A stretch of 64,000 bases of DNA, taken from NCBI RefSeq assembly GCF_021028975.2, contig NC_059439.1, positions 33,976,001 through 34,040,000 on the forward strand, in the 5' to 3' direction. The notes beneath the pieces were generated by a model that was given only the letters and a program-made list of their open reading frames with translations, made no database searches and was not told where the DNA came from. Source of the stretch: Sphaerodactylus townsendi (taxonomy: Eukaryota). Position numbers and translations under genes: made by a program. The number at the start of each line of letters is the position of its first letter. Within the stretch, counting starts at the first letter, position 1. Of the stretch, positions 19,620 to 60,525 are shown one piece after another.

Positions 19620-20290
19620 TTATATTTGTATACCGCCCTCCCCGAAGGCTCAGGGCGGTTTCCAACAACATAAAAATTTAAAACATCATAAATATAAGTT
19701 AATTAAAATACATAAAATATTAAACTAGAGATGGCTTCAACTATTATTCATTTTGTGTGAACAGGCCAGATGTTTACCCAATTATTGCGGTTGATATCAT
19801 TCCGGCTGGCCAAATGCCTGGCGGGAACAGGTCGTTTACAGGCCCTGCAGAGAGCATGAAATCCCTTGGGGCCCTGAGAATCTCACCTGGAAGCCCTGTT
19901 CCACCAGGTGAGGAGGCCAGAGCCCGTAAAAGCCCTGGCCCTTGCTGAGGCCGGATCACCTTAGAGGCAGGGATCACCAGTAGGTCACTCGATGAGCGGA
20001 GGGGCCTAGAAATATAGGAGAGCGGTCCCTTAGATATGCAGACCAGGCATGAATGGCTTTAAAGGTGAAAACCAAAACTTTAAACATGACCCGGTACTCG
20101 ATCGGCAGCCAGTGCAGTTGGTATAGGACCGGAGTAATCCGGTCCTATACCAATTAATTAATTAATTAATTTATTTATCATATTTATATACCGCCCTCCC
20201 CCAAAGGCTCAGGGCGGTGTCCATCAGTCATAAAACAATTTAAAACATATCATAATATCGTAAATACTAAAACTTTGCAGATGGCTTCAT
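19573..20290 (-). mobile_element. Two adjacent L2 LINE 3' fragments
   Basis: Two (ATTT)n tails, each followed by TACCGCCCTCCC..GGCTCAGGGCGG. 19800-20130 resembles the L2 ORF end at 33 kb. Confidence 0.8.
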
Positions 20291-20338
20291 TTTACATAAC
20301 CTTATTATGGTGGGCCCCCTGGCCCTGCGCGCCTGAAG

Positions 20339-20647
20339 CAGGCGCGCAGGGCCAGGGGGGCGTGTCCCCAGGCCTCGGCGACGCGCCGGAGGCCCGGGGA
20401 GAAGGTGAGTGCCGGGTGGGGGAGGCGGCATGAAGCCGCTGCCGTTCGCTCGGCAGCGGCTTCATGCCGGCGTTTCCCCAAAAAGAGCGCTGGGAAGCGC
20501 TCTGGGGAAACGCCGCCTTCAGGCCGGCCGGGCGGCGCGAGGGCGGCGCGGCTGCGTTGCAGCTGCGCCCCCCGTGCGAATGGCGGCCTGGAGACGGTGT
20601 TTTTACCGTCTCCAGGCCGCCATGAATTGCCCGTGCAGAAATGGCCT
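20339..20647. mobile_element. CpG-rich Harbinger-like MITE remnant
   Basis: Ends ..GTGCAGAAATGGCC followed by TTA. High CpG content suggests it is young. Confidence 0.5.
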
Positions 20648-22369
20648 TAGAGAGTTTCCTGTGCCTGGAAACCTAATTCAAACAGGAAAAAAAGCATTTT
20701 TATTGAAAGCAGGTTTATTGGAAGCAGGGGAAAACAAAGCAGTTCTGGTCCAACTGGGTCAACAATAAAACATATTAAATAATCTCTGTTGCCTGGAGAT
20801 CAGCTGTAATCCCAGGGGGATCTCCAGCTACCCCCTGGAGGCTGGCAACCCTGTAGGAAAGGCCTAAACACACTTGCTGATTTCCAAAGCCTGCTTTCTC
20901 TCAAGCGTTTCAAACCCAACAGGCTGAAGGAATAAACAACTGACGATTAACAGTCCGGTGAGGAAAGTGCTCGGGGGATCGTGGCAGCCCCTTTGGAGCA
21001 GAGCGACAGTCTTTATGATCTTCCCGAATCCTCAGCCCTTTGCAGTATCTACTGCCAAGACAGATCAACGAAGAAGAGCATGCCCCCCCTTCAGTCTGGG
21101 GGTACGTCTGCCCAGCTTCTGAGACCTGACGAGATGAGGCTGGGTGGGCCGTCGAGGTCAGAGAAACTTCAGCTTAGAAGGCTTCAGATACAGGCAGGAG
21201 TCCCTCTCAGCGTGGCTCACGAAAGTCGAATTTAGAGTGCATTCTCTGCACGTATTGCAAAGCGTCCTCGAGTTTCCAGGGCAAGGTGGGGCCCCTGCTT
21301 GGCTGGTTTGTACACCTGCGGCCTGTCCAAGTAGAGAGTGTTGGGTAGAGGGCTCGTTTCCCTGATTTAGCAGACGACAGCTTCTCTCTCAGACTCAGAG
21401 CCAGGAAAAGATGGGCACCAGGAACCATTTCCTTCCATCTTCCACTTGTGATTTGCATCAGGAACAAACTCGGCAGCATACTTGCCAGCCAGCAATGCAT
21501 GTGGCGTGGCTGGGAATGTATGTTGAGAAGCTGTAATTTCTCCCGGAGGTTCCTCAGACACTTCTGGCCATTTTACTGTCGGGGGATTCTAGATTTTCCT
21601 GCTCTTATGCTGGAGAAATAAGTTTTTGGAGTGAAGGCATCAAGGAAGCTATTCAAAGTAGGCTTTTTCAGTAACCCTCACATGATAAGTTCTGCCAATC
21701 TCCCTAGTAAGTTAGGTTGGGAACCTCCGTGATAGAGAAGATGGAAATCCAGTATATGGCCCTAGAGGGACAGGCATCTCCACTGAAAGGGTATCTAGAA
21801 GCAAGATTCAGATAGACATCTGTTTCGACACCTTGGAGAACTTCAGGCATAATTCTCGGCTTGGTGGACCAATTCCCTCACTTTGGAAAAGGCTTACAAT
21901 CCTACTGTCTCCTGAAAGAAACCCAAAGGTATGACTTGGGAGTAAAATGTTGGGGAGCGGGGTGGAGATTTCCCTTTTGTGGCTTTAGCTTTCTCAAGTG
22001 TTCGCTTTACGATGTGTCTGGCAACTGTGAAGGAAACCAAAAATCCCTGACGTTTTACACAAAATGTGCAGGTAGCGTTCACAACAGCCGTTCGTAACCC
22101 TTTTTTCACTCCCATAACCCTGGGCAACCCATTTCCCTAAAACTGTACCCCCATATTAGCAAACTCATTGCTTAACTCTTTTTGCGTATCTCCAACTGAT
22201 CTAGGCTTTCAAAAGATACAGTTACTAACCACACAGGTTCACATTTGATTAAGTTCTGTTTACAATTTGATTTAGTTATTTTAAATGGGCTGGTTTAGTT
22301 CAAATCTATAACCATTATTTTTTGGAATTACTCCCCAGAAATTCTACCCTGCTACTTACCTAGACCAAC

Positions 22370-31423: not shown

Positions 31424-31627
31424 AAAGTCTTTCTTAAATGCAGCTTTGACTTCGTGGTAGCTACCTTGTTCTATGGCACCACAATCTCTGCCAATGTTAG
31501 ACTCCGGTCAGGAAAATCTCCTGAAAATGACAAAATCCCCAGGTTATATCATGTAGTTACCCCTTTTCTGAAACGTCTCAATTGCATTATGTGGAACAAG
31601 GATGTCCACGAGGCAGTGGTGTTGTAA
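31424..31627 (+). pseudogene. OR pseudogene relic (TM6-TM7-C-terminus)
   Basis: KVFLKCSFDFVVATLFYGT..ENDK..YHVVTPFL..NKDVHEAVVL is a degenerate form of KAFSTC..LFYG..DK..TP.LNP..RNKDVH. Confidence 0.85.
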
Positions 31628-33272: not shown

Positions 33273-34718
33273 TTTAACAAAATGGCTGATTTTAAATTAG
33301 GAGAAGGTTAGAGGAAAAGGTAAAAGCAATGTGAGCTCCCCAGGGAAAGAAGTACTATGTTCATGGAAGCACCCTTTTGGGACTCTAATCTGAAGAGCTG
33401 GACTTGATTCCCCGCTCCTCCACATGAGTGGCAGACTCTAATCTGGTGAACTAGGTTTGTATCCCCACTCCTACACTGGAATAAATGGCTTTAGACTGCT
33501 GTAACTTCTCAGGATTGCTCTGACAGCAACTTTCCTTTCTTGTTTTTGTTCCGTTAAATGCTTTAGACTCAAAGACACTGAGGAAATAAATGACATACTG
33601 TTAATAAACTCAAAGAGGACAGCGCTCGAGGGACCACAATAGCCCCTGTAGAATAGAACTGCAGGAGTTATTATCTTCCTGAATCTTCACACCTTTGCAA
33701 TCAGATGGTGAGGGAAAACATTCACTATGCTGTCGTTTTCTAATCCTGAGAGTAGGTGGCGACTAGCCAGGCTGGCTAGCAACTAGCCAGCCTGGCTAGC
33801 AACTAGCCAGTTTGGCTAGCAAATAGTCAGCTGGAGTAGCCCCCAGACTCAGTAGGCTTTGAACATTTTTTTAATCATATGCTATCACAGTATACCATGT
33901 AGAATGCAGTGTATATGCTTTGCACACATCTCAAAAGACCTCGGGCATCCAGTAAAAATATTGCCGTCAAACCTGAGATTACTTGTCTTATTCAGCCTAA
34001 AGCAACTTCTCTTTCAACCCTAATTTCAGAGAGTAGCCGTGATGGTTTGCAGCAGAGCGAGGGTTAGGAGTTAGGATTGGGTCTCAAGCTCTCTCAGCCT
34101 TAGAGTTTAGGGCGTCTTTGGCAAAGAGGGCCATCCTGACGATTACTGTCTCTTTTTACTCAGACTCTGGTCTCCAGAAGCAGTCTATGAAGCAATATGC
34201 CCCAGATCAGTAACACATACAGTGACTATAACTCTTTTTATAAATCAGTTCAGATAATAACTGCTGTCTTACAGCTTGAGATTCAGTTCTCATTCTAGAG
34301 GACCCAACCACTGCGAATTTAGGCTGCTACAGGTTGGTCTGTCAAAAATCAGCAAAGATCTCCACAGACCTTGTAGCAGAGAAGTCGCTGATTTTGCCTG
34401 CAAGATCCAAGTCAGGAGGAATAGCTTCGTGGCACTCGTTTTACATTCAGAGGATACCTAGTTCGATCTATGGCAACTCCAGTTAGGAGATGGCAGGAAT
34501 TAGGGGTTCAGAAAGACATCTAATTTAATGTCTGCTGTCACTCAAAATTGGGAAAAATGAGACAAACCTGGTTCAGCATGTGGCTAGTTCTGAGGTATAT
34601 GCCTCTGAGTGCAGAGACTCTGGCAGTCTAGTGAGGTTCCTCATGATCTTTAAACATATTGAATCCAAAAGTTTTAAATCCCTTCTGGCATTTGAAGCAC
34701 ACTACTCTAATCGGTGAC

Positions 34719-34768
34719 ATGAAGCTCTCTGCCTTGGATGTCCAGGAATGGCAGGGAAAAGTGCAAAG
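34719..34768 (+). CDS. Candidate upstream coding exon of OR-2 (MKLSALDVQEWQGKVQ-R)
   Basis: gacATG, then 50 nt with no stop to the donor AAG|GTAAGA (GT at 34769). Phase 2 matches the OR-2 acceptor. No transcript evidence. Confidence 0.5.
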
Positions 34769-35273
34769 GTAAGATTATATTCAACAAGTGGGAAATGGAT
34801 TTGATTGGGATGGGGATGGGAAGGTTGGGACAGCTCACCCCCTGAACTCCTTTTAAATTCACTATTTAAAGTTATGGTTTATGTTATGTGTATGTTAAAT
34901 TTATTCACATCTGATGACAGTGTTATATGTGAATTAAGTAAACAATGGTTAAGATAATTTCAGAGAGTAGCTGTGTTTATCTGCAGTAGAATATCTAGAT
35001 TTGAGACTAGAGACCAACATTTGAGGGTGTGGTTAAGGCAATTTCCCTGCCTTTCCTGTCTCTCTCCAACGTGGTGTAGCAGTTAAGAGCAGGTGGATTC
35101 TAATCTGGAGAACCAGGTTCGATTCCCCACTCCTCCACCTGAGTGGCTGAGGCTTATCTGGTGAACCAGATGTGTTTCCGCACTCCGACATTCCTGCTGG
35201 GTGACCCTGGGCTACTCACAGTTCTCTCAGAACTCTCTCAGCCCCATCTTGTCTGTTATGGAGAGAGGAAGGG

Positions 35274-36677
35274 TAATCCCACCTGCCAGATAAGTTGTTC
35301 GTCATCAGGTCCTCTGACACCCAAAATATTGGTCTCAAAGGGGGTAAAACAGGGCTGTGTGTTGGCACCTTATACGATCTTACCCCCATTTTGAATAACT
35401 CCAACCCTCATTGTCCTTATCCGAATGGTGTTCCTTTGGCCATCCTCCTTTATGCCGATGACGCAGTCTTGCTATCGAGAACAAGGTTAGGTCTCAAAAA
35501 CTCCCTGATCAAATGTGAAGAGTATTGCCGAAATAACAGGTTGGTTATAAATCCTGCGAAATCTAAAATAATGGTCTTTTCCAACATCTTTAGACCCACG
35601 AGATGGTCCATCCAAGGGGCTGACATAGAGCAAGTCAAACTGTTCAAATACCTTGGGATAACATTTCACCATAAGTTAAGCTGGACCACTCATAGGAACA
35701 ATACTATTAAAGGTTGCAAGAATCTGTCCACTGCAGTTCTGAGATTTTTTAACATCCATGGTGGGAGGTTTATTCCAGGTGTTTAATGCCAAGGTGGTCC
35801 AGTACCTATTGTATGGTATCCCTGTCTGGATCCAAGCTTGGCACAAGAACCTGGAACGTATCCAATCAAACTTCCTATATAAGATATTTGGCACCCCACA
35901 TTGTGTCCCTTATGGTGTGCTCTGTCTGGAATCAGGGCAACATCTATTAGAAACTAGGGCATGGGCTGTAACGTTTAAGTTTTGGCTGCGTCTATGCTTC
36001 TGCACAGATCCAAAAAGTTTATCTTTGCTAGAAATGAGGGAGCTTCAGCTTTCGAAGTGGTGGCTCCATATTGAAAAAAAAATGTTCTCCTTGAGTTTCT
36101 CATGGGAGTCTCTTCACATGCTTACCACCACGGAAATTGACCATCATCTAAAGATCAGACTGTACGGCCAGGAATACCAATCTCTCCTGAGTGCTGCACA
36201 AAGCTCCTGTTCCCCTCTATACTTTGGGATCACACCCCCGAAATCTAGCCCAGCTGTATATTTAGAACAGCTTGTTATTTATAATGCAGATGGGTCATGA
36301 CAAGAGCAAGGTGCAACTCATTCCCCTCTGTCTATCTTCGTTTCCTTAACATCCCACAAAGTGAGCGTTGTTGTCGGTACTGTCCCAACGCTATGGACTC
36401 AATCCCTCACATCCTGCTTTACTGTTCGAGGTATAATGATGTTAGAACTGATCTGGGAGCTTTACTACCTCTAGAATTTATGTTTCCCCCAGACAAACTA
36501 AAAATGTCTAAGCTATTGAACAGCCCCTAATGTAGAAATTTCTGAAGCAGTTGCTACATTTATAATCCATGTTCTACATGATATATAACAATGACCTTGT
36601 TTTTGTACTTGGAATGTATGGTACTTCTGGTTTATGCCTAATAAAGGTTTTTAGATTGGATTGGATTGGATTGGATT
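35274..36677 (+). mobile_element. 5'-truncated RTE-X-like LINE inserted into a SINE
   Basis: RT motifs GVKQGCVLAP, LLYADDAVL, FKYLGI; C-terminal RARCNSFPS..ERCC..C..H..C; AATAAA plus (ATTGG)n tail. 13-bp TSD GAGAGAGGAAGGG at 35261-35273 and 36678-36690. Host SINE 35068-35273 resumes at 36691. Confidence 0.9.
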
Positions 36678-37329
36678 GAGAGAGGAAGGGAAAGGCGCTT
36701 GTAAGCCACTTTGAGTCTCCTTACAGGAGAGAAAGGTGAGGTATATATTCCAAACTCCTCGTCTTCGTCTTCGTCCTCGTCTTCGTCCTCGTCTTCNNNN
36801 NNNNNNNNNNNNNNNNNNNNNNNNNNNNNNNNNNNNNNNNNNNNNNNNNNNNNNNNNNNNNNNNNNNNNNNNNNNNNNNNNNNNNNNNNNNNNNNNNNNN
36901 NNNNNNNNNNNNNNNNNNNNNNNNNNNNNNNNNNNNNNNNNNNNNNNNNNNNNNNNNNNNNNNNNNNNNNNNNNNNNNNNNNNNNNNNNNNNNNNNNNNN
37001 NNNNNNNNNNNNNNNNNNNNNNNNNNNNNNNNNNNNNNNNNNNNNNNNNNNNNNNNNNNNNNNNNNNNNNNNNNNNNNNNNNNNNNNNNNNNNNNNNNNN
37101 NNNNNNNNNNNNNNNNNNNNNNNNNNNNNNNNNNNNNNNNNNNNNNNNNNNNNNNNNNNNNNNNNNNNNNNNNNNNNNNNNNNNNNNNNNNNNNNNNNNN
37201 NNNNNNNNNNNNNNNNNNGCCTCCCCCCCAAGGCAATTTTTATATTTTTCCAACTTTCTTTCAGGTTCATTATTTTTGGTTCATTATTTTTGCAGGGCTC
37301 GGGATGGTGGTGGGTTTTTTTTAGAAGAA

Positions 37330-38373
37330 CCTCCACATGTTCAGGGCAGCTACAAGTGACCCTCTTTACAAGAACCTACAAGTTAGGTGAAGTTTGGGCA
37401 AGGGGGTCAAATTGTGTCGGTCCTCCAAAAGGGTCCTCCAAAAGGGTGCCCCCATCCATTCTCCACTGGAAACAATGGAGGAAAATTTGGAGCCTCCATA
37501 AAATTGGACCCCCCCCCCCAGCCCAATCTTCAGCAAACTTGGAAGTTGAGGAGAGGCACCAGGAGCCATGCTGCAAATTTGGTGCCTCTACTTTAAAAAA
37601 TATGCCCCCCCCCCCAAGCCCAACAATTTTTTCCCCATTAACATCAGAGCTGTTCCCTTTCAAAAGTTAATCCCTTTAAGGCTCCATGCTACTCTATGTC
37701 AAATCTTTCTGGAGCTGTGGAGAGGGGCTGTTTTATAAGGTACAGGCACCAAATTATCCGTGGGTCTGCAGGTGCCTCTCCTTATGAGAACCCCCAAGTT
37801 TGGTGAATATTGGGTCAGCAGGTCAAATAGAGGAAAAGGGGAAATCAAACTCAGGGACTCTTGTAAGGAGAAGTACCTGCAGACCCATGGAAAATTAGAT
37901 GGCTCTGCCTCAATCCCCCCCCCCCTTCCCAGAACACTGCAAAGATACCTCAAAGAGGTATTGCTGGAAAAAAAAATCCTACCATTCCAAGAATGTCGGC
38001 CAAGCAATTTTAAACCAGAGGATTGAAGTAAGACGAATTTTCCCACCATTTTTGCAATGGTGGGAACATTTTCAACAGCACAGCACTCTTGTGGAGTCTT
38101 TGCGGGCCTCTGGGGGCTGTTATTTTAGGCGGAGGCACCAACATTTGTAGCTTTGCTGCTCTCCTTACAACAGTTTGGTTCAGTTTCGATCAAGGGATCC
38201 AATTTTATAGCTTCCCCCCCCCCCCATTTTCCTCCATTTGGGGACCCATAAAATTGGATCTTCACCCAACTTGGGGGGTTCTCATAAGGGACCAAAAGCT
38301 CCGCTAAAGATTTGGTGCCTCTACCTTTAAAAATATCACCCCTAAGCTCTGGAGCTGGCTGAATCCCACCACT
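37330..38373. mobile_element. Non-autonomous hAT-like element with internal repeated/inverted blocks
   Basis: Repeated CATAAAATTGGA..AACTTGG..TTTGGTGCCTCTAC blocks in both orientations. Ends GAATCCCACCACTG (CAG-type TIR). Confidence 0.55.
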
Positions 38374-38689
38374 GGTTATATGTTTTGTCCACTTCACAAG
38401 CACGTGTGTGTCTGTGGTGTGTGTGTGTGTGTGAGGTGCATTGGCATGTATCCAAGGTGGAGTTCATTTGTGACGGCATTTGCCATTGCGTGAGCATGTG
38501 TCTGGGTGGAGTTTATTTCAGCTGCACTTGAATGTCTCTGGTTTTTGGTTTTGGTGTTTTTTTAGTACCGGTAACCAGGTTTTCTGTTTACTTGAATTTG
38601 GTACAGACAGAACAATGCCTTTTGTTGACCTAATTTCCCTAAAATCAAGAACAACCACTTCATCTTGGTGCTACCCCTTTTCCCTGCAG

Positions 38690-39650
38690 GGAGGAGGCCA
38701 CAGTAGTTGTTGAGAACGTCACCTTGATCACAGAATTCATTTTCGTGGGACTCTCCAACGACCGGAAGACCCGGATTGTGCTTTTTGTGGTGATCCTTCT
38801 GACCTACACGTTGACCATCATGGGGAACCTGGCGGTCATCACGCTGGTACGGTCTGACTCCCACCTCCAAACACCCATGTACTACTTCCTGATGCACCTC
38901 TCATGTCTAGAGATCTGCTATGTCACCTGCACAGAACCACAGATGCTGGCTCACCTGCTGGCCGGAAAAGGAGCCATCTCCTTCACTCGTTGTATGGTCC
39001 AGATATTGGCTGCCATGTTAATGGGCGCTGCCGAATGCTCTCTGCTGGCGGTCATGGCTTACGACCGTTACCTGGCCATTTGCCAGCCTTTGCTGTATCC
39101 TGTTGCCATGGGCAGGTGGCAACAAATGCTCCTGGCATCTAGCTGTTGGGCAATAGGTCTTTTTTTTGGTACCGTATTTGTGGGCTGTGCCCTTCGCCAC
39201 TCCTACTGTGGTCCCAACCGTATGAACCACTTCATGTGTGAGTTGCCGGTGGTGCTACAACTTGCCTGCGATGATACCCACACCACTGAGGTGGTGGTTT
39301 TTGCACTATCTGCCTTGGGCATCCTGATTCCTATTTCTATTATCCTGATTTCCTACGCTGTCATTCTCTTCTCCGTGTTGCAAATACGGTCCGCCACCGG
39401 ATGGCATAAAGCGTTCTCCACCTGCGCTTCCCACCTTGTGGTCGTTACCTTGTTCTATGGAACTCTGGTTTCTATGTACCTGATTCCACGATCCGCCGCA
39501 TCCTCAGATCGTGGCAAACACATTTCTGTGTTTTATGTGGTGGTCACCCCTCTCCTCAATCCTGTCATTTACACCCTGAGGAACAAGGATATTCATCAGG
39601 CAGTGGGCAGAGTCCTGCGAAGAGGTGGGTTTGAACCAAAACGAGTATAG
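38690..39650 (+). CDS. Olfactory receptor OR-2 main exon: intact 7TM frame lacking an N-terminal ATG
   Basis: Open from the acceptor (AG 38688-38689): EEATVVVENVTLITEFIFVGL..LQTPMYYFL..MAYDRYLAICQPL..KAFSTCASHL..PLLNPVIYTLRNKD, TAG ending 39650. The first in-frame ATG (38820) lies within TM1. Confidence 0.93.
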
Positions 39651-39905
39651 ACATCCTTCACCGGAGAATACCTTCAAAGCTACATCTGCCTCCACACATT
39701 TAGTAGGTAAAGATGATATAACAGAGATAGCATTCTGGGGGGGGGGGAAGACAACTTTGTTAGGTGGTAGTGCTCAAACTTTCTCTTAATTTTATCCAGC
39801 TTTCTTCTAACTGATGATCAAAAACACAAAGTTAAGCCGTGCATTTTCAAAAGCTAATATTGTCTCAAAGTCATATCTTAGTAGTGTTTGTGGCTTCAGT
39901 GTCCA

Positions 39906-39922
39906 TAATTAATCCCAGAGGA
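39906..39922 (+). promoter_or_regulatory. Homeodomain + O/E(EBF)-like composite motif, candidate OR promoter element
   Basis: TAATTA-A-TCCCAGAGGA. Copies at 49597-49613 and 50163-50179; diverged copy at 57115-57131. Confidence 0.45.
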
Positions 39923-40599
39923 ACTTCATACCTCTGAGGTTTGCAGCTAGGAAATTCTGCACACTTTCTATACTCATTTAGGAACCAGCTGCATCTTCTG
40001 GAAGAGACAGCCAAAAAACACTTCCCATATCCAGTTTTGAACTTCTCCTTCTCTCAGTTGGCTGCTGCCTTGAAGAAGAAAAAGAGTTGGTTTTTATACT
40101 CCTCTTTTCTCTACCTTAAGGAGTCTCAAAGTGGCTTACAGAAACCTTGTGAAGCATGAAGGGTTGGGAGAGTTCTGAGAGAACCATGACTAGCCCAAAG
40201 TAGGCTTAATGTGGAGGAGTGGGAATTCAAACCTGCTTCTCCAGATTAGAGTCTGCTGCTCTTAACCACTACACCATACTTGTCTACAATGAGGCAAGAG
40301 GAAGAACGCAACAGCTAGCAATCCTTCCACCGTGCCTGGATCTCTACCTTCCTGAGAAGCACTTTTTAAACTATATAAACTTGGCTTTAAAATACTCTGA
40401 GTGCCAGTTTTGGCTCAAAAATGGGTAAAAATGGCACAAATAAAGCTTCAGAAACCCTGACCATTTCAGAGCAGTGTGGAGAAAATTTCCTTCCCCATCT
40501 GAAGTCTCTGACTAGACCAGTGAACGTCCATTTCATTTTCCAACACCTTCCATTAGAAAGTTGGTTGCGGCATGTCTAATTGTTGTATGGCTTAAAATA

Positions 40600-40665
40600 A
40601 GTCAGAGGCACAAGAAACTTCACGTGGGTGGTGGAATATACTGGAGAGGAGCAGAAAGGTAAGAT
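40600..40665 (+). other. Candidate 5' non-coding exon end/splice donor for OR-3 (paralog at ~50943 for OR-4)
   Basis: AAAG|GTAAGAT is conserved in both duplicates and similar to the donor at 34768. TAATTG lies ~80 bp upstream. Confidence 0.45.
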
Positions 40666-41496
40666 CACACCTGTCCCTCTTCCACCTTTACATTTTTAGA
40701 TGGCTAGTTTTCTTCTACGGATAGAACTCTTTAAAATCATATTTGTCTTTATTCCAGAAAAGTCTGTATAGCTCATTAGCTTTTAGAAAATAGAAAAAAG
40801 TAAACACACACAAAAAAAACAAGGAACAGAAATATGTCTGGCAATAGCTGACAATATGAATTTCATTTCCCCGACAGGAGATGCATGATCCAAAAGGAAA
40901 TTATCACGAGAGCTCTTAAAATACTGTAGAATATTTGCATGAACAGAAAAAAAAACATGAACAGGAAAAAAAAGTATTTTAAGGTTTCTTTTTAATCATT
41001 TATTTAACAGAATTAATGTAATGGTGTAGGAGCAGCAGTGTGTGGTGTAGGAGCAGCAGTGGCGTAGGAGGTTAAGAGCTCGTGTATCTAATCTGGAGGA
41101 ACCGGGTTTGATTCCCAGCTCTGCCGCCTGAACTGTGGAGGTTTATCTGGGGAATTCAGATTAGCCTGTACACTCCCACACACGCCAGCTGGGTGACCTT
41201 GGGCTAGTCACAGCTTCTTGGAGCTCTCTCAGCCCCACCTGCCTCACAGTGTGTTTGTTGTGCACAAATTATCTAATCTGGAGGAACGGAAGTTTGATTT
41301 CCCAGCTCTGCGCCCTGGAACTATGGAGAGGAGTTTATCTGGGGAATTCAGATTAGCCTGTACACTCCCACACTGCGCCAGCTGGGTGGACTCTTGGAGC
41401 TAGTCACAGCTTTCTTGGAGTTTCTCTCAGCCCCACCTGCCTACAGGGTGTTGTTTGTTGCTGAGGGAGAGGCAAGAAAGATTGTAAGAAGCCCCT

Positions 41497-43084
41497 TTGA
41501 GAAGGGCAACAAGGATGATTGAGGGACTGGAGCACCTTCCCTATGAGGAGAGGCTGCAGCGTTTGGGACTCTCCTTTAGTTTGGAGAGGAGACGTCTGAG
41601 GGGGGATATGATTGAAGTCTATAAAATTATGCATGGGGTAGAAAATGTTGACAGAGAGAAATTTTTCTCTCCTTTCCTCCACAATACTAGAACCAGGGAT
41701 GGGCAATTCCGTTGAAAATGCTGCAGGGGAATTAGGACTAATAAAAGGAAACACTTCTTCACGCAACGTGTGATTGGTGTTTGGAATATCGCCGTTAGGA
41801 GGGGTGGTGACCCACTCAACCTGGGGTCACTTCATCCGCCTCACCATAAGCCCCACAGCGGGGTCACCCCTCTTTAAAAGCCACGCGGGGTCCTGGGCTC
41901 CCCACATCTCCAAGCGCCACTGCACTGCTGGCCGGGGCCGCTGGGGATTTACCTCTCTCCCCCTCCTGGCTCTTGCTTTGCGCGAGTAGTCTCCCGCTTA
42001 AAAAAGAGCAACTTTTTTAAAACCTCGCTGGTGCGGCGAGGTTAGTGAAGGGAACTCGGCTAAGTTACGGCTGATGATTACTCTGGCTGTGACGGCTGCA
42101 GCTCACGGCCAATCAGGGAACAAGGGCGCCTATCTGATAAGTGGGGGGGCGGTCCCCGTCTAAAGGTGGCGCAGCGCTTGAAGCGATGGCAGTGAACACG
42201 CGTCGTGCGACGCAGTCGAAGCTCACGCGTCTTCACGCGTCTTGACCAACTTGTTTCGAAAGCCGATGCGAGCAAATGGAAGATAATGTCGGCGCTCGGC
42301 CGAATGGGGAAGGAAGTACAAGAGGCGTGCGTGGCGAGCTGGCTTCTGCTTTCACTTCCAAACACTGCTGATGACGTTATGCCTCCACAGAAAGCCGCAG
42401 CCAACGATTTACTGCTGGCGTCAGCGTATGTGCCGGCGATCTTAATAGAGGGCTGTTAAGCCTCTTTTGATGACGTTCGCGCACTGCGCTTCGTCAGGCG
42501 AACCTATCATAAACAACCTCTTCCCAGCCAATCACATTATCTGGAGACCCGCCCTACGGCTGGCCGCCCACTTCCACGTAACTCATGGCCTTAATAATGC
42601 CGCGTTAGTATTGTCGGGCTTCCATTCTCACCCTCATTGCAGCTCCGGCTCTTTGCTACGCCAGCGTTATTTCCAAGAATTGCCAGCGTGTGGGGAACAA
42701 ATGTCTCCGTGGTAGCCAGAAGCCACGGAGGCTTTCGATACTTGAAGGGCTTACGCGAGTTGCAGTTTAGCTGAGTGAGGTAAAGTGGGTGAAATTAGCC
42801 CCTGGATAGCTTTAAAAAGGGCTTGAACAGATTTATGGAGGAGAGAGTCGATTTATGGCTGCAATCTTGATCCTCTTTGATCTGAGATTTACGCAAATGC
42901 CTTAACAGTCCAGGTGCTTCGGGGAGTAGCAGCAACTGGCAGCAACGAGCCATTGCTTTCACATCCCTACATGTGAGTCTCCCAAAGGCACAATTCTGGT
43001 GGGCCACTGCGAGTAGCAGAGAGCTGGACTAGATGGACTCTGGTCTGATCCAGCTGGCTTGTTCTTATGTTCTTATGTTCTTAT
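41497..43084 (+). mobile_element. CR1 LINE 3' portion interrupted by a noisy GC-rich insert (~41830-42795)
   Basis: RRATRMIEGLEHLPYEERLQRLGL..LERRRLRGDMIEVYKIMHG is the CR1 ORF2 C-terminus. (TTCTTATG)n tail at 43060-43084. Confidence 0.9.
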
Positions 43085-43491: not shown

Positions 43492-46005
43492 TGTGCCTAG
43501 TCAAACTGTGCCTTCTGTGAAACTATGTCTAGACTTTTTACGTGAGTAACCATGTTGGTCTGCAGTAGAAGAAGAAGAGTTTGGGATATAGACCCCACCT
43601 TTCTCTCCTCTAAGGAGATTCAGGGTGGCTTACAAGCTCCTTTTCCCTTCCTCTTCCCACAACAGACCCCTTGTGAGGCAGGTGGGGCTGAGAGAGTTCA
43701 GGGAGAACCGTGACTAGCCCAAGGTCACCCAGCAGGAATGTAGGAGTGTGGAAACACATCTGATTCACCAGATAAGCCTCTGCTGCTCAGGATGTGGATA
43801 AGCCTCTGCTGCTCAGGTGGAGGAGTGGGGAATCAAACCTGGTTCTCCAGATTAGAATCCACCTGCTCTTAACCACTACACTACGCTGGCTGTCGTAAAA
43901 GCTGATACCCTGGGAGATCGTGTTGGTCTCTAAAGTGCTATGGTATTTGACTCTAGCTGTGTCTAGATTCACTACTAAACACAAATACTGATAGCTGGAC
44001 TCTGTTTCACATAAAGATAGTTTGAGATGCAGCTGTTGAGAAAATTGTATGCTTCCTCATTATAATATAGTCCCAAATGAGTATGAGAATTTATTCGTTT
44101 ATGCCTTTGTCAAAACCTTTATTTTGTGCATTATTGAACATGGTAGTTTGATACAAGACCATTTATGCCAAAATGTATTTTTACTTTGAAACTTTCAAAG
44201 AGCTAGGATGGCTCTAGGACCCAGGTGGCGCATTCTACAACAAAGAAGGTCTGGCATGTTTTGTTCTGTGGTGGAGGAATATACAGTCTGCTAACATCTT
44301 TATGTGAAACAGTATGACAATAATTATTATTATGGTTAATGTTTATCATAGCACATGCAGCAAATCAGTAATTTTGTAAGGTGAATGACAAACACTTCAA
44401 AACAAGGAGTTCAAACCATGGAACCCTGTGACAATTTACATAAGAACATAAGAACTAGCCTGCTGTATCAGACCAGAGTTCATCTGGTCCAGCACTCTGC
44501 TACTCACATAAGAACATAAGAAGTGGCCTGAGTGCCGCTAGTAGCTCACATGAAAGATGTGAAAGCAATAGCACTCTACTCTGATATTACTCAAATGCTG
44601 AACTTCCCTATGTGAAAACAATAACTGAGCACAAGAATCAGATGACTAAGACGCTGCAATCTCAGATCCAAGGAGGATCAAGATTGGTAGCCAGAGATCA
44701 ACTTCTCCTCCATAAATCTGTCCAAGCCCCTTTTAAAGCTATCCAGGTTAGTGGCCATCACCACCTCCTGTGGCAGCAAATTTAGGGTCACTTAAGAGGT
44801 ACTGATGGAACTGTGGAATGGTTGGGTATAGCACATGCCATAGGACCTTAGAAGATAAGCAGGTGGGCACTTAGAGATGGGACACCACCGAGGAAGACTA
44901 TGCAGAGGAAGGTCATGGCAAACCACCTCTGCTTAATCACTTGCCTTGTTAGCCCCTTGCTGGGGTCACAAGTCATTTGTGACATAACAGAACGGACGTA
45001 TGTAAGAGGCATTCAACCCTATTCACAGGTCGGGCTACTGGCCGTGGTGCTGCAGCCGCCCCACTGCAAAGAGGCTTCCCAGTGGTGTGGGAGGGTCTGA
45101 AAGCCTCCCTGCCACCGGGAAGCCCTAACAGGCTGCACAGCACTTACGCCAGCCAAAAGGAGCAGCAGTNNNNNNNNNNNNNNNNNNNNNNNNNNNNNNN
45201 NNNNNNNNNNNNNNNNNNNNNNNNNNNNNNNNNNNNNNNNNNNNNNNNNNNNNNNNNNNNNNNNNNNNNNNNNNNNNNNNNNNNNNNNNNNNNNNNNNNN
45301 NNNNNNNNNNNNNNNNNNNNNNNNNNNNNNNNNNNNNNNNTCAGGTGTAACACCGTCAGGGCCAGGAGGGAGCTGACTAATGTTGGCTCTTATTCTGGCC
45401 TGCCCGTGTCACCTTTGCTATGCCGGCAGGGGCGGCAGGGACACTGGGATGCTCCACAGCCTTCTGTGTGCGTGCTCGCGAAACTGCCCCTCTGCTGGGG
45501 TAAGTGGCCGAGGGAGGGCAATTCCACCATTGTGTAAATCCACCAGCGAAGAAGAAGAGTAGGGGAAGAGTTTGGATTTCCACCCACCCCTTCTCTCCTG
45601 CAAGGAGACTCAAAGGGGCTTACAATTTCCTTTCCCTTCCCCCGCCCCCCACAACAAACACCCTGTGAGGTGGGTCGGGCTGAGAGAGCTCCGAAGAACT
45701 GTGACTTGCCCAAGGTCACTCAGCTAGCATGTGTTGGAGTGCACAGGCTAATCTAGTTCCCCCAGATAGGCCTGCACAGCTCAAGTGGCAGAGCAGGGAA
45801 TCAAACCCTGTTCTCCAGAGTAGAGTGCATAACCACTGCTCATAACCACTATGCCACTGCTGCTCCCACCAGTACACCAGCTTCCCCTTCTGGATGGGGC
45901 TTATAGTCATATAATGAAGAACAAGAGATTTTAGTGAGATCTTGCTACTGTTTGGTTCTCTTGCAGAATTTGATGGGTGTGTTTCCCCTTTTCCAGGAAG
46001 TCCGG

Positions 46006-49668: not shown

Positions 49669-49747
49669 TCAGGAACAAAGATGTTCATGATGCCGCAGCC
49701 AAGATGATGGGCAGGTGGGGATTGAGCTACAGACACCAAGTAATATA
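49669..49747 (+). pseudogene. OR 3'-end relic (RNKDVHDAAAKMMGRWGLSYRHQVI*)
   Basis: Near-identical to the last ~26 codons and the 3' flank of OR-3/OR-4. Confidence 0.92.
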
Positions 49748-49802
49748 GTGAGAAATAGATACATAAATACAAAGACTGGGGCTACTCAAGATTAACAAAT
49801 AT

Positions 49803-52572: not shown

Positions 52573-53530
52573 GACCACCAAGGAAGACTATGCAGGGGAA
52601 GGCCATGACATACAACCTCTGCTTAATCACTTGCCTTGATAGTCTCTTGCTGGAATCACAAGTCATTTGTGACATAACAGAACGGACATACGTAAGAGGC
52701 ATTCAGCCCCATTCACAAGTCGGGCTGCTGGCCGTGGTGCTGAAGCTGCCCCACTGCCTCCTAAGAGGCTTCCCAGTGGTGTGGGAGGGTCTGAAAGCCT
52801 TCTTGCCGCCGAGAAGCCCTAACAGGCTGAACAGCACCTGCACCAGCCAAAAGGTTGGCTTAAGTGTGGGCTGCCGTTTTCTGGCATTGCACCATCAAGG
52901 ACCAGGAGGGAGATGACGAATGTCGGCTCTTATCCCAGCCTGCCCGTGTCTCACCCTTGCTATGCTGGTAGGGACAACAGGGACACTGGGATGCTCCACA
53001 GCCTTCTGTGTGTGTGCTGGCGAAACTGACCCTCTGCTGGGTCAGTTACACAATTTACCATTGTGTAAATCCACCAGTGTAGAAGAAGAGTAGGGGAAGA
53101 GTTTGGATTTCTACCCCCCCTTTCTCTCCTGTAAGGAGACTCAAAGGGGCTTACACTTTCCTTTCCCTTCCCCCCTCACAACAAACACCCTGTGAGGTGG
53201 GTGGGGCTGAGAGAGCTCCGAAGAACTGTGACTTGCCCAAGGTCACTCAGCTGGCATGTGTTGGAGTGCACAGGCTAATCTATTTCCCCCAGATAAGCCT
53301 CCACAGCTCAGGCGGCAGAGCAGGGAATCAAACCCTGTTCTCCAGAGTAGAGTGCACCTGCTCATAATCACTACGCCACTGCTGCTCCCACAAGTACACC
53401 AGCCCCCCCTTCTGGATGGGGCTTATAGTCATATAATGAAGAACAAGAGATTTTAGTGAGATCTTGCTACTTTGGTTTGGTTTTCTTGCAGAATTTGATG
53501 GGTGTGTTTCCCCTTTTCCAGGAAGTCCGG

Positions 53531-54496
53531 ATGGCAGCTGAAAACTTCACCTCCGTCCAGGAGTTCATCTTGGTGGGACTTACCAACCATCGCAAGACCC
53601 AGATGTTGCTCTTTGTGGTCATCCTCCTTACCTATTCCTTTACCGTTTTGGGGAACCTGATGATCATTGTCCTGGTGCTGACAGACTTCCACCTCCAGAC
53701 ACCGATGTACTTCTTCCTCACAAACCTCTCGACCCTGGAGATCTGTTTTGTCACGACCACTGAGCCCCAGATGTTGGCTCACCTCATGGCTGGAAATGGA
53801 GTCCTCCCCTTCACTCATTGTGTCGCCCAGATGTACATTGCTACCTCCCTGGCCAGTATTGAATGTTTTCTCTTGGCTGCCATGGCCTATGACCGCTACT
53901 TGGCCATCTGCCGCCCTCTCGTCTACACAGTCGCCATGGGTGGGTGGCACTCGCTGCAGTTAGCCTTTGCCTCCTGGGTGATTGGCGCCATTCTCGCTTC
54001 AATAACTATGTCCTCCATCCTCCGCCTCCCCTTTTGTGGGCCCAACCGCATAAACCACTTCTGCTGTGAGGCGCCACTGCTGTTGAAACTGTCATGTGCC
54101 GACATCCGAGTTACAGAGCAAATAGTGGTCATCTTCTCTTCGTTCATCCTTCTATTTCCCCTTTCTTTAATCCTGACCTCTTATGGGATGATTCTCTGGT
54201 CTGTGTTGCAAATACGATCGAAACTGCCTGGAAGAACGCCAAGGCTTTTCTCATACATCGCCCTCCCACCTGGCCGTGGTCTCCCTGTTCTACGCCACCG
54301 CCATGTTCATGCACCTGATCCAATTGCTTCGGCCAAGGTAAATTCGAATTATGACAAGTGGATTGCGGTTTTTTATGCCGTGGTCACTCCCATGCTGAAC
54401 CCGATCATCTATACCCTCAGGAACAAAGACGTTCATGATGCCGCAGCCAAGATGATGGGCCGGTGGGGCTTGAGCTACAGACACCAAGTAGTATAG
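53531..54496 (+). CDS. Olfactory receptor OR-4, young paralog of OR-3; TM6 region scrambled by compensating indels (probable assembly error)
   Basis: Protein identical to OR-3 except in TM4/ECL2 and at 54221-54340, where many small insertions (net +12 nt) remove KAFSTCASHL from the frame. Confidence 0.85.
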   Translation: MAAENFTSVQEFILVGLTNHRKTQMLLFVVILLTYSFTVLGNLMIIVLVLTDFHLQTPMYFFLTNLSTLEICFVTTTEPQMLAHLMAGNGVLPFTHCVAQMYIATSLASIECFLLAAMAYDRYLAICRPLVYTVAMGGWHSLQLAFASWVIGAILASITMSSILRLPFCGPNRINHFCCEAPLLLKLSCADIRVTEQIVVIFSSFILLFPLSLILTSYGMILWSVLQIRSKLPGRTPRLFSYIALPPGRGLPVLRHRHVHAPDPIASAKVNSNYDKWIAVFYAVVTPMLNPIIYTLRNKDVHDAAAKMMGRWGLSYRHQVV

Positions 54497-56070: not shown

Positions 56071-59000
56071 GTTTGGATTTATATCCCCCCTTTCTCTCCT
56101 ACAGGAGACTCAAAGGGGCTTACAATCTCCTTGCCCTTCCCCCCTCACAACAAACACCCTGTGAGGTAGGTGGGGCTGAGAGAGCTCCGAGAAGCTGTGA
56201 CTTGCCCAAGGTCACCCAGCTGGCATGTGTGGGAGTGTACAGGCTAATCTGAATTCCCCAGATAAGCCTCCACAGCTCAGGCAGCAGAGCTGGGAATCAA
56301 ACCTGGTTCCTCCAGATTAGATACACGAGCTCTTAACCTCCTACGCCACTGCTGCTCCAACCTCCTACGCCATGAGCTCTTAACCTCCTACGCCACTGCT
56401 AGCAGGCTAATTGACAAAGTTTTCCTGGAGGCCTTGTGAAAAGTTGAGAAAACAGGTTTTTTTTCATACTGGATGGAACCTGAAGTGCTTCTGACTCAAG
56501 AGACAGAGCAAGCTATAACAGACAATTAATAATCCACCATAAAGCTCCAAGGGATCAGACTGCTCCCCATAGAGTAGATCTGCCATCTTTATTTGCTTCC
56601 TGAATCCTCAAACCTTTGACAATTCGCAGGGCAGGGACAGCATGCTGTTCGTTACTTGACACTGGGAATGGTTTTGTGGGATTGACCACCAACATAGTAG
56701 CCTTTGAAACTGTTAGGAAAAGTACAAGAGATGCCAGCCACAGATGCAGGCGAAACGTCAGGAGAGAATGTTGCTAGAACACGGCCATACAGCCCGGAAA
56801 CCACACAGCACCCAGTACAAGAGTGATTTAGTAGCCAGATGGTAGGTTCCAATTTTTGTTTTGTTTGTAAAGGATCGTGGCATCTCCAGCTGAAGGATCT
56901 CAGCTTGTAGGGCATGGAGTACTGAAAAACCTCTCCCAGTCAAGAAAAGCTAAAAATAAAAATAAAATTTAGAAGGGCTAGGATTTTCCACCCAATCCTA
57001 GATGTTGGAACAGTGAAAACCTTCTGACAGTCAGCAGCATAGAGCAAAACTGAATATTTTAAGCCAATGAAGGACATGGTTTATATATTGCTTTTTGTGT
57101 ATATCTATGACCCATAATTAACTTCAGAGGAGCTGAAGATCTTGCTTATAGCTATGGGACTGCAAATGCTTCTGCTTTCCCTCTTAGAGGGACGTGTCAC
57201 TAGACAATTGGCAACTGAAGATGGGTCATGGGTCGCTTTTGCAGAGCTGCATGGGGCAACTTTTCCTCAGTGCCTGTGGGTAGATCTTGAAAAAAACCCT
57301 GGAGAAACATGAAGGTAAAATCAGATTCTACAATTTGGGATTGGATTATGGGGAGCAGATTTCAGTTTGCTGTTTTAGTTGTCAAGGGCATAGTAAATAC
57401 CATTCCTGAATTGGCTGAAGAGCTTGTGTATCTAATCTGGAGGAACCGGGTTTGATTCCCAGCTCTGTCGCCCAAGCTGTGGAGGCTTATCTGGGGAATA
57501 CAGCTTAGCCTGTACACTCCCACACATGCCAGCTGGGTGACCTTGGGCTAGCCACAGCTTCTCGGAGCTCTCTCAGCCCCACCTACCTTACAGGGTGTTT
57601 GTTGTGAGAGGGGAAGGGCAAGGAGATTGTAAGTCCCTTTGAGTCTCCTGCAGGAAAGAAAGGGGGGATATAAATCCAAATTCTTCTTTTTCTTCTTCTA
57701 CTGGAACTTGCAGTGACCTCAAGGCCTAAGTTTGGTAAGAGGTGCCATCCCCCCCAAACCTTTTGGTCTTTAGACAAATGCAACAAATTCAGGACTTCTC
57801 ATTGATTTTTCCCTTTCAATTTCCATCCCTACAGCCACATATGTATTGAAACAATACAAGTAGAGAGGGAAATGGGACCACCCATCCTAGAAGAAGATGA
57901 TTAGATTGGGTTTATACCCTGCTTTTCTCTCCTGTAAGGAGTCACAAAGTGGCTTACAAACTCCTTTCCTTTTTCTAAGCACAATCAACACCTTATGAGG
58001 TAGGTGGGGCTGAGAGAGGTTTGACAGAACTGTGTCTAGTCCAAGGTCACCATCAGGCTTCATGTGCAGAAGTGGAGAAACAAACTTGGTTCACCACAGT
58101 AGAGTCCTGCCGCTCATGTCAGTGAGTGCGGAATCAAACCCAGTTCTCCTGTCCGCTGCTCATATGGATGAGAGGAGAATCAAACTCAGTTGGATCCAGA
58201 CCAAAACAAGTGGTAATCTAAGAAAAGAATCCTTGTAGCTGCTTGCACTGAATCAAACTTACTGTATCCCCACTGGCATTTCTAGTTGCTCACAATCACA
58301 AGATTTTACACAACAGATGCCTTGCCAGGTTGGTGGGTCTGAGAGAGTTCCCAGAGAACTATGACTGGCCCAAAGTCACCCAGCAGGTTTCTTGTGAATG
58401 AGTGGGGAAACAAATCCAGTCCTCTAGGTTAGAGTCTGCAACTAATGTGGAGGAATGGGGCATCAAACCCAATTTTCCAGATTAGAATATACCTGCTCTT
58501 AACCACCACATTGTGCTGGTAGTGCTTTGGTTAGATAAAGATCTGAGAGGCTTAAATTCACAACCTTAATCTACCATGGAATGTGTTAGGACAACAAGAA
58601 TGCATCACGATTTCATCCCAGCCCTTTTCTAACTCCCAGACCAGTTGTGAGGATAAAGGAAAGAAGAACAAGCTATTTACATCTGTATGGTGAATAGAGT
58701 TTACTTGCATATGGCCTTAAGCCTTTACAAAATATTGTAAACTAATTTCACATTTTAAAAAATACATATTAACATTAACATTAGAATCACAGAAGTACAA
58801 ATTATACCAAATCAGGAATTCAGCTGATTCGGCTAGAACGAAAATTTTACAGCCGAATCAAGCTGCATCCGAATTTTACTGAATTTTTTCGGCGTTGCTC
58901 AAGTTTATAAATAACCTTAAAATGATTTAAAAAGCATAACACCGTTAGGGCATCCAATCAACCAATAAGGTCAATTTTGGGTAACTGCTCTCATGGACAG

Positions 59001-59580
59001 TACATTGTCCCTTATTTTCCCAGCTGCCAACTTACACCTGTGTATGAAAAGGGCAATATCGTTTTCTTTAATGAAACCTGCAGATGAAGGAAGGAGCCAG
59101 AAATGCAAAAAACAATCTCCACTCATAAGCAGTGCAGATTGGAAGGCAGTTCTTCTTCATTATACTCTGTCTCATATGGTCAGTTTAGGTGCAGCGGTCA
59201 AGAAAATGGTATGCTTCCGCATTACAATATAGTCCCGAATGAATACGTTAATTATAATTAATTTTTAAGAGCTGCCTTAGTCAAAACCATTATTCAGTGC
59301 ATAACTGAACATGGTATTTGATAAACTGAATGACAAAATGTATTTTTACTTTCAAAAGGATGCAGAGGAGGTCTAGATAGGCACTAGGACACAGATCATT
59401 CTGCCACAAAGAAGGTCCAGTATGCTTATTTCTGTGGAGGAGGAATGTACAACACCACCAATATCTTTTCTGAGACTATACAGTATTTCAGGCAACGAAG
59501 CATAGCTTCTTCTTTTAGGATGCACCCTTTCTGAAACATGTCTTTCTCTCCTTTCTCTGCAGGCAGGAGCCCAGGATAGC

Positions 59581-60525
59581 ATGGAGAACATCACCTTTGT
59601 CACGCAGTTCATCTTGGTGGGACTCTCCAACAACCACAAGACTCAGATTGTGCTGTTTGCAGTCTTCCTCCTCATCTACTTGCTTACCATTGTGGGGAAC
59701 CTGGTGATCATCATGTTGATTCAGGTGGACTCCCACCTCCAGACCCCCATGTACTACTTCTTAACACACCTTTCCATCCTGGAAATCTGCTACATCAGTA
59801 GTACAGTGCCTCAAATGCTAGCTCACCTGCTAGCTGGCAATGGAGCCATCTCCTTCACCCGTTGCGCCGTACAAATGTACATTGCATTATCCCTAGGTAG
59901 CACCGAAGGTCTTCTACTGGGTGCCATGGCCTATGACCGGTACTTGGCCATCTGCCACCCTTTGCTTTATGTCATCGCCATGGGCAGGTGGCGCCAGCTG
60001 CAGCTGGCTTCAAGTGCTTGGACAGGTGGCTTCCTGCTGTCCATATTGAATGTGGGCTGCACCCTTTGCCTCCCTTTCTGTGGCCCCAACCGTGTCAACC
60101 ACTTCTTCTGTGAGTTGCCGGTCATTCTAAAACTGGCGTGCGCTGACACCTGGATTACAGAAGCGGTCATATTTGGGGCAGCAGTCCTGATCCTCCTGGT
60201 TCCCCTTTCGGTCATCCTGACGTCCTACAGCCTCATTCTGTTCTCTGTTTTGCAAATGCCGTCAGCGTCCGGACGACACAAAGCTTTCTCCACTTGTGCT
60301 TCTCACTTGGCTGTGGTCATCTTGTTCTATGGCACGGTCATCTCAATGTACATGAGACCTCGATCGGACACAACTACTGACATTGACAAGAGAATTGCCG
60401 TCTTTTATATTTTGGTCACCCCTCTACTCAACCCCTTCATTTACACCCTGCGGAACAAGGATGTCCATAATGCAGTGGTTAAAGTGTTCCAAAGATGGGG
60501 CTTCCAAATGAAGCTACAACATTAA
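59581..60525 (+). CDS. Olfactory receptor OR-5, intact, 314 aa
   Basis: MENIT, GN, LQTPMYYFL, VPQML, MAYDRYLAICHPL, HFFCE, KAFSTCASHL, PLLNPFIYTLRNKD. Acceptor TTTCTCTGCAG ends at 59562. Confidence 0.97.
   Translation: MENITFVTQFILVGLSNNHKTQIVLFAVFLLIYLLTIVGNLVIIMLIQVDSHLQTPMYYFLTHLSILEICYISSTVPQMLAHLLAGNGAISFTRCAVQMYIALSLGSTEGLLLGAMAYDRYLAICHPLLYVIAMGRWRQLQLASSAWTGGFLLSILNVGCTLCLPFCGPNRVNHFFCELPVILKLACADTWITEAVIFGAAVLILLVPLSVILTSYSLILFSVLQMPSASGRHKAFSTCASHLAVVILFYGTVISMYMRPRSDTTTDIDKRIAVFYILVTPLLNPFIYTLRNKDVHNAVVKVFQRWGFQMKLQH

Follow-up and report, generated by a model that had tools for sequence, protein, structure and literature searches.

A predicted split-start olfactory receptor in the gecko Sphaerodactylus townsendi, with its likely start codon in an upstream exon

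Results

We analyzed a window of 64,000 nucleotides (nt) from the gecko Sphaerodactylus townsendi (contig NC_059439.1, positions 33,976,001 to 34,040,000; bare positions below are those of the window), which carries five tandem olfactory receptor (OR) genes, OR1 to OR5, on the + strand. The second of them, OR2, has lost the start codon normal for its kind and keeps an open frame, and its sequence makes it likely that translation begins at an ATG in an upstream exon (34719), reached through a predicted splice to 38690. The product would likely be a receptor of 336 amino acids (aa) with a hydrophilic N-terminal extension of 21 residues (mean hydropathy, -0.9 to -1.2).

Structure of OR2

In OR1, the start ATG (29220) lies 13 nt into the main exon, and the same offset in OR2 is GTA; most close gecko homologues read M-x-x-E-N at the start position. 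A preliminary description of this DNA had pointed to the homologous acceptors of OR1 and OR2 and to the missing ATG, and both observations held, the acceptor homology extending to further genes (Table 1). The OR2 main exon gives a match to Pfam 7tm_4 (E = 1.8e-44) over profile positions 3 to 277 of 280, and this full-length match, together with the conserved OR columns, places it among the vertebrate olfactory receptors. Its glycosylation sequon, seven-transmembrane (7TM) body, and open frame to a single stop are as first described. No Met was found in the unspliced frame upstream, and on the downstream side the first in-frame Met comes at residue 61, beyond the first transmembrane segment (TM1).

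The ATG at 34719-34721 opens a frame of 50 nt that runs to the donor AAG/GTAAGA, the last exon base being 34768. Exon 1 has three ATGs in these final 50 nt (34719, 34738, and 34748), of which only 34719 is in frame. Out of four offsets tried, the computed join was in frame at 38690 only, where it yielded 336 aa, one stop, and the N-terminus originally written, extension length included. The intron had been said to contain an N-gap. The N stretch does not reflect a gap in the assembly, since G000 is lettered at this place, with a simple tandem repeat, and the intron also holds short interspersed element (SINE)-like repeats and a reverse-transcriptase remnant of a long interspersed element (LINE; 35277-36300).

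The RefSeq model of OR2, XP_048372733.1 (P0001; olfactory receptor 2D2-like, Sphaerodactylus townsendi), already predicts the same upstream exon and junction, and its first 329 residues are identical to our join. It differs in its 3' part, where a splice near 39624 in the main exon leads to a further exon near 41800, for a total of 391 aa, whereas the homologues end in the manner of the TAG at 39648-39650. The 3' exon of this model (39625-41990 region), through which about 60 unrelated residues replace the normal C-terminus, is likely a prediction artefact.

Loss of the canonical start codon

GTA was found at 38703-38705 in two further sequencing runs, X2 (organism A) and X5 (label C), each with 0 differences on its own contigs, and GTG was found there in the relatives B (run X4) and D (run X7), which are about 2 to 4% diverged. 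The GTA, for which a check on raw reads had been proposed, is real, and the start ATG is absent from the main exon in 4/4 runs compared. Relative D reads V-A-V-E-N where the Euleptes protein P0004 has M-A-V-E-N. From these codons, the most parsimonious path would be a single transition, ATG to GTG, before the split of A, B, and D, followed by a synonymous change of GTG to GTA in A. The two substitutions away from ATG that were counted earlier would thus be a single change that killed the start, ATG to GTG, and a synonymous step that came later. A loss shared with the Euleptes protein P0006 by way of an Ile codon was set aside, because B and D have GTG and the V-A-V-E-N of D matches P0004. Over 39028-39657, not all contigs of run X5 are identical to the window: it also contains pieces with a likeness of about 85%, which have several letters in common with relative D and would come either from a second homologue or from a mixture in the sample.

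Maintenance of the OR2 coding sequence

Across A, B, and D, we counted 8 distinct indel events in about 683 non-coding nt versus 0 in the 1,010 nt of the coding sequence (CDS) (P = 7e-4; P = 0.011 with the count lowered to 5 events), and B and D each have a single gap in their long contigs, in both cases outside the CDS. The selection check suggested at the outset gave a dN/dS of about 0.36 (P = 0.01) for the CDS differences listed, which comprise 13 synonymous and 11 nonsynonymous changes and cover 20/25 of the differences for B and 27/35 for D; with the remaining differences, the bounds are 0.15 to 0.63 (B) and 0.22 to 0.69 (D). OR2 is off consensus at 9/154 columns conserved in 80%, which is the median of 108 homologues, and at 2/89 columns conserved at 95%. 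It has no gap, and so no deletion in any of the seven TM regions, in alignment A2. We consider OR2 probably functional and hence in need of a start codon, and the next Met lies past TM1.

Identity of the upstream exon

A match of phase alone is weak evidence. An open in-frame ATG occurs within 60 nt of 19%, and within 200 nt of 25%, of the 614 donor-like GTs in the region, in line with the caveat on chance matches in the preliminary description. The donor at 34769 has the best score between OR1 and OR2 (7.26, on an approximate donor matrix). When the 280 nt before it were compared with those before the best OR3 and OR4 donors, the z values were 4.6 and 3.9, and 0/608 decoys scored as high; this homology beyond all 608 decoys marks the OR2 donor as an inherited exon end. 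Local alignment alone did not separate the exon-1 region of OR2 and OR3 from background. Homology between the first exons of OR5 and OR2, plausible in a MAFFT alignment, failed the decoy test (z = 0.75; 147/608 decoys as high).

The frame conservation first proposed as a check was observed: ATG 34719, its frame, and the donor are unchanged in B, in D, and in a second sample of A, and the donor is likewise unchanged in X2, X4, X6, and X7. No change of the acceptor AG is among the differences listed for X2, X4, X5, and X7, a comparison among relatives about 2 to 4% diverged only. The 50 coding nt of exon 1 show 0 differences in B and 1 missense difference (34750) in D, with flanks about 4% different and several indels in them. 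Neither O/E nor homeodomain motifs were found before the OR2 donor, and a run search on 38690-39800 returned no RNA run among the 14 listed, a result that says nothing on expression.

Extended models in other geckos

In a quick tree of 57/121 proteins plus OR1 and OR3 of the window, 14 gecko proteins formed a clade (SH-aLRT, 99), within which P0001, P0004, and P0006 branch without a clear order. Two members lack the canonical Met, OR2 and P0006 (Euleptes XP_056720135.1), both with a 16-codon extension, and a third, P0012 (Heteronotia XP_060110862.1), has a 16-codon extension and keeps both starts. The P0012 extension is identical to that of OR2 at 9/15 residues, and 0/20,000 peptides of a genomic null scored as high (P < 5e-5). 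For P0006 the figure is 4/15 (P = 0.007), and Ile replaces the canonical Met, a loss that is likely separate from that in OR2. The leader R-Q/E-E-A-T follows the upstream peptide in all three. P0012 and P0006 were compared as predicted proteins, and the sequences encoding their extensions should lie in those genomes. A protein search with P0012 residues 1-40 returned the query itself only (1 candidate), being too insensitive to count, and a profile search with alignment A2 brought up no new gecko clade member and no transcript-derived extended protein among the best 120 of 270 matches.

Evidence against an upstream start, and alternatives

Several observations weigh against translation of OR2 from the upstream exon. 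The OR2 branch in the quick tree (0.35) is about fivefold longer than those of its Euleptes sisters (0.06 and 0.07), another Sphaerodactylus/Euleptes pair showing only an approximately threefold ratio, and relaxed constraint on OR2 is possible. If the remaining CDS differences were all nonsynonymous, dN/dS would be 0.63 to 0.69 and not significant, and a stop could be among them. The single substitution in the coding stretch of exon 1, against 3.3 to 3.6 expected, is not a significant deficit (P = 0.11 to 0.15). The 320 nt upstream contain 7 ATGs, all of them closed before the donor. Finally, the models of 11/14 clade members begin at the canonical Met and show no extension, the three proteins that do have one are gene predictions, of which later ones may follow an earlier one, and the RefSeq model of OR2 carries the implausible 3' exon described above.

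Some of these points would suit a young or slowly decaying pseudogene, disabled by the start loss, in which the in-frame ATG upstream is either a relic no longer in use or there by chance. The long branch and the upper dN/dS limit of 0.69 fit such a state, as do the chance frequency of an open in-frame ATG near donor-like sites and the commonness of broken ORs in this cluster (3/15 of the OR genes examined in the window, beside it, and on C3). The lack of coding indels across A, B, and D next to eight flanking events, the dN/dS at the listed sites, and the intact OR columns speak for maintenance, and we regard decay as unlikely.

It is less probable still that OR2 is functional and started elsewhere, either at a near-cognate GTG or from a different upstream exon with an ATG of its own. 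The GTG of B and D does have a strong Kozak-like context (a purine in position -3, G in position +4), and 3 other, weaker donors (31026, 33225, and 37387) of the 18 scoring above 2 between OR1 and OR2 have an open in-frame ATG. The genome analyzed here, however, has GTA, and GTG to GTA is a change allowed in an internal Val codon; GTA is not known to serve as a usable initiator. Moreover, the donor at 34769 is the one with demonstrated homology to the OR3 and OR4 donors, and it fits the extensions of two other geckos.

The preliminary description had viewed OR2 as an OR with a split CDS for which a 5' untranslated region (UTR) exon was recruited. The split itself has good support in the DNA evidence, namely, the frame, the donor homology, and the conservation in B and D. 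Recruitment as a rescue in this lineage, for which the ATG would have appeared together with the loss or later, is another matter, and we think it very doubtful. A rescue would agree with the homologous exon of OR3 and OR4, which contains no open in-frame ATG, and with the lack of an extension in most clade models. Against this, P0012 has the same ATG position and extension length, with an intact canonical Met, P0006 has an extension of the same length, and a rescue after loss would require a non-functional interval. Because P0012 carries a homologous extension of the same length before an intact canonical Met, the upstream ATG of OR2 probably predates the loss of the canonical ATG, rather than having come in as a rescue. 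The order we favor is the upstream ATG first and the canonical ATG lost later, twice. An assembly error hiding a true ATG can be dismissed, given GTA in X2 and X5 and GTG in X4 and X7.

Proposed route from two starts to one

With the upstream start as the preferred reading, the following route may be proposed. An ancestor common to this gecko, Heteronotia, and Euleptes would already have had the upstream ATG in frame. With exon 1 spliced to 38690, scanning ribosomes would pass the weak upstream open reading frames (uORFs) and start at 34719; one such uORF, of 24 codons, begins at an ATG in weak context (34643), and its stop ends 1 nt before ATG 34719. In the ancestral two-start state the downstream ATG would have been redundant, and it could have decayed by drift, here and independently in the Euleptes paralogue. 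No intron would have been gained, the start having shifted across an old 5'-UTR intron. The extension of OR2, being hydrophilic and drifting freely in sequence, is likely a start codon plus a linker, its own sequence being unimportant.

Recurrence in other olfactory receptors

In OR5 to OR8, an in-frame ATG lies two codons before the shared exon-1 donor in all four genes. OR6 (RefSeq XP_048372738.1) has lost the in-exon Met (ACG) with its frame open, which makes it a candidate for a second split-start gene in the same cluster. Open-frame ORs without an in-exon Met number 2/12 in this cluster and 2/27 elsewhere in the genome, the latter from a sample of 30/138 matches from which 2 without an open frame and the mis-anchored L043 were dropped. 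L057 and L065 (G000:C6) are open-frame ORs with Lys where their paralogues have the start Met. Among models from other squamates, Met is lost in Eublepharis P0074 and Liasis P0061, with weakly similar extensions (P = 0.0006 to 0.03), P0061 being a chimeric model, and the start Met is absent from Tiliqua P0090.

We tentatively suggest, as a possibility somewhat short of an even chance, that an old 5' exon provides this subfamily of squamate ORs with start codons held in reserve, in which the in-frame ATG came first and the canonical ATG was lost repeatedly and independently. The cases would be OR2 and OR6 of Sphaerodactylus, the Euleptes paralogue, and the Eublepharis, python, and skink models, with Heteronotia as a two-start intermediate. 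If this were true, split ORs would arise without the gain of an intron, by a shift of the start across an ancestral UTR intron, and several per cent of the functional genes would be absent from reptile OR counts.

Coordinates and neighboring genes

The features of OR2 and its relatives in the cluster are collected in Table 1. OR4 (53531-54496) is a recent duplicate of OR3, 92.6% alike over 1.6 kb, and its TM6 stretch is out of frame between two compensating indels, which is decay or an assembly error. The acceptors of OR3 and OR4 (45995-46005 and 53520-53530) seem to lie 4 nt further downstream than those of OR1 and OR2, 9 nt before the ATG, and the phase of exon 1 would thereby be altered. 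Isolated 3' fragments of ORs occur between full-length copies at 31424-31618 and 49669-49771. Two ORs among the minus-strand paralogues are frameshifted (G000:C15 33959254-33960205 and C3 1450530-1451470). No gene was identified at a CpG-rich island (20000-20800) in which position 20405 is a strong donor-like site.

Table 1. Positions of predicted OR2 elements and of related genes in the cluster
Feature	Position	Strand	Remarks
Likely promoter or 5' part of OR2 exon 1	34486..34718	+	Homologous to the sequence that precedes the donors of OR3 and OR4
Predicted coding part of OR2 exon 1	34719..34768	+	16 codons + 2 nt; purine at -3 of the ATG
OR2 splice donor GTAAGA	34769..34774	+	Top score between OR1 and OR2
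Predicted OR2 intron	34769..38689	+	3,921 nt; family's ancestral 5'-UTR intron; repeat content
Polypyrimidine tract and acceptor AG	38670..38689	+	AG at 38688-38689; homologous to acceptors of OR1 and OR5-OR8
OR2 main exon	38690..39650	+	N-glycosylation sequon NVT, 7TM body, stop TAG at 39648-39650
Former OR2 start codon, GTA	38703..38705	+	GTG in B and D; 12/14 gecko clade members have Met
OR5	57309-57322 and 59563-60525	+	In-frame ATG two codons before donor
OR6-OR8	G000:C15 about 34039100-34055300		OR5-like paralogues

Discussion

The numbers of intact and broken OR genes serve as a proxy for the sense of smell. A survey of reptile ORs demanded a start Met of an intact gene (PMC2758906), and surveys that look for this Met in a single exon would drop genes such as OR2. 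The expectation that pipelines relying on open reading frames alone would call OR2 truncated or pseudogenic thus stands for surveys of that kind; it fails for RefSeq, where XP_048372733.1 already annotates the gene. The working mechanism of ORs is unchanged by the finding.

The closest known counterparts are the split ORs with an ATG in an upstream exon, of which Barnes et al. (2020) list 41 loci in mouse and 13 in human, with Olfr1174-ps, Olfr1175-ps, and Olfr1177-ps as mouse examples of the first class (PMC7055050). As in this class, the main exon of OR2 has no conserved start ATG, and an upstream ATG restores an open reading frame of more than 300 aa, in the computed join over two exons, with no downstream ATG that would give more than 300 aa. 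There are likewise no TM deletions in alignment A2. The start Met has the same position in B, D, and two other gecko models and is not visible in 11/14 clade models, and the sites of the predicted splice junction show no change among the differences listed for the close relatives. The intron lies in the extracellular N-terminus in both, with mean lengths of 3.4 to 3.8 kb in the mammalian genes and about 3.9 kb in OR2. The differences are that OR2 belongs to a reptile and is predicted here from DNA, whereas the criteria of Barnes et al. include a junction in olfactory RNA sequencing data and expression at the level of protein-coding genes. Their wording, moreover, is of an origin by intron insertion, and the OR2 intron is common to single-exon paralogues.

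The same source provides a likeness to what we presume to be the ancestral state. An in-frame upstream ATG is present in intact ORs that make up 13.6% of the coding ORs in human and 21.5% of those in mouse (PMC7055050, Table 1), and uORFs occur in 86% of mouse ORs. Such two-start genes would correspond to OR2 before its downstream start was gone. We found no paper on split ORs in reptiles in the literature outside subscription journals. OR2 would thus extend the split-start ORs from mammals to a reptile, as a case of a known class whose junction is already in RefSeq. What it appears to add is a visible evolutionary route, in which the steps from two starts through ATG, GTG, and GTA may be traced across close relatives.

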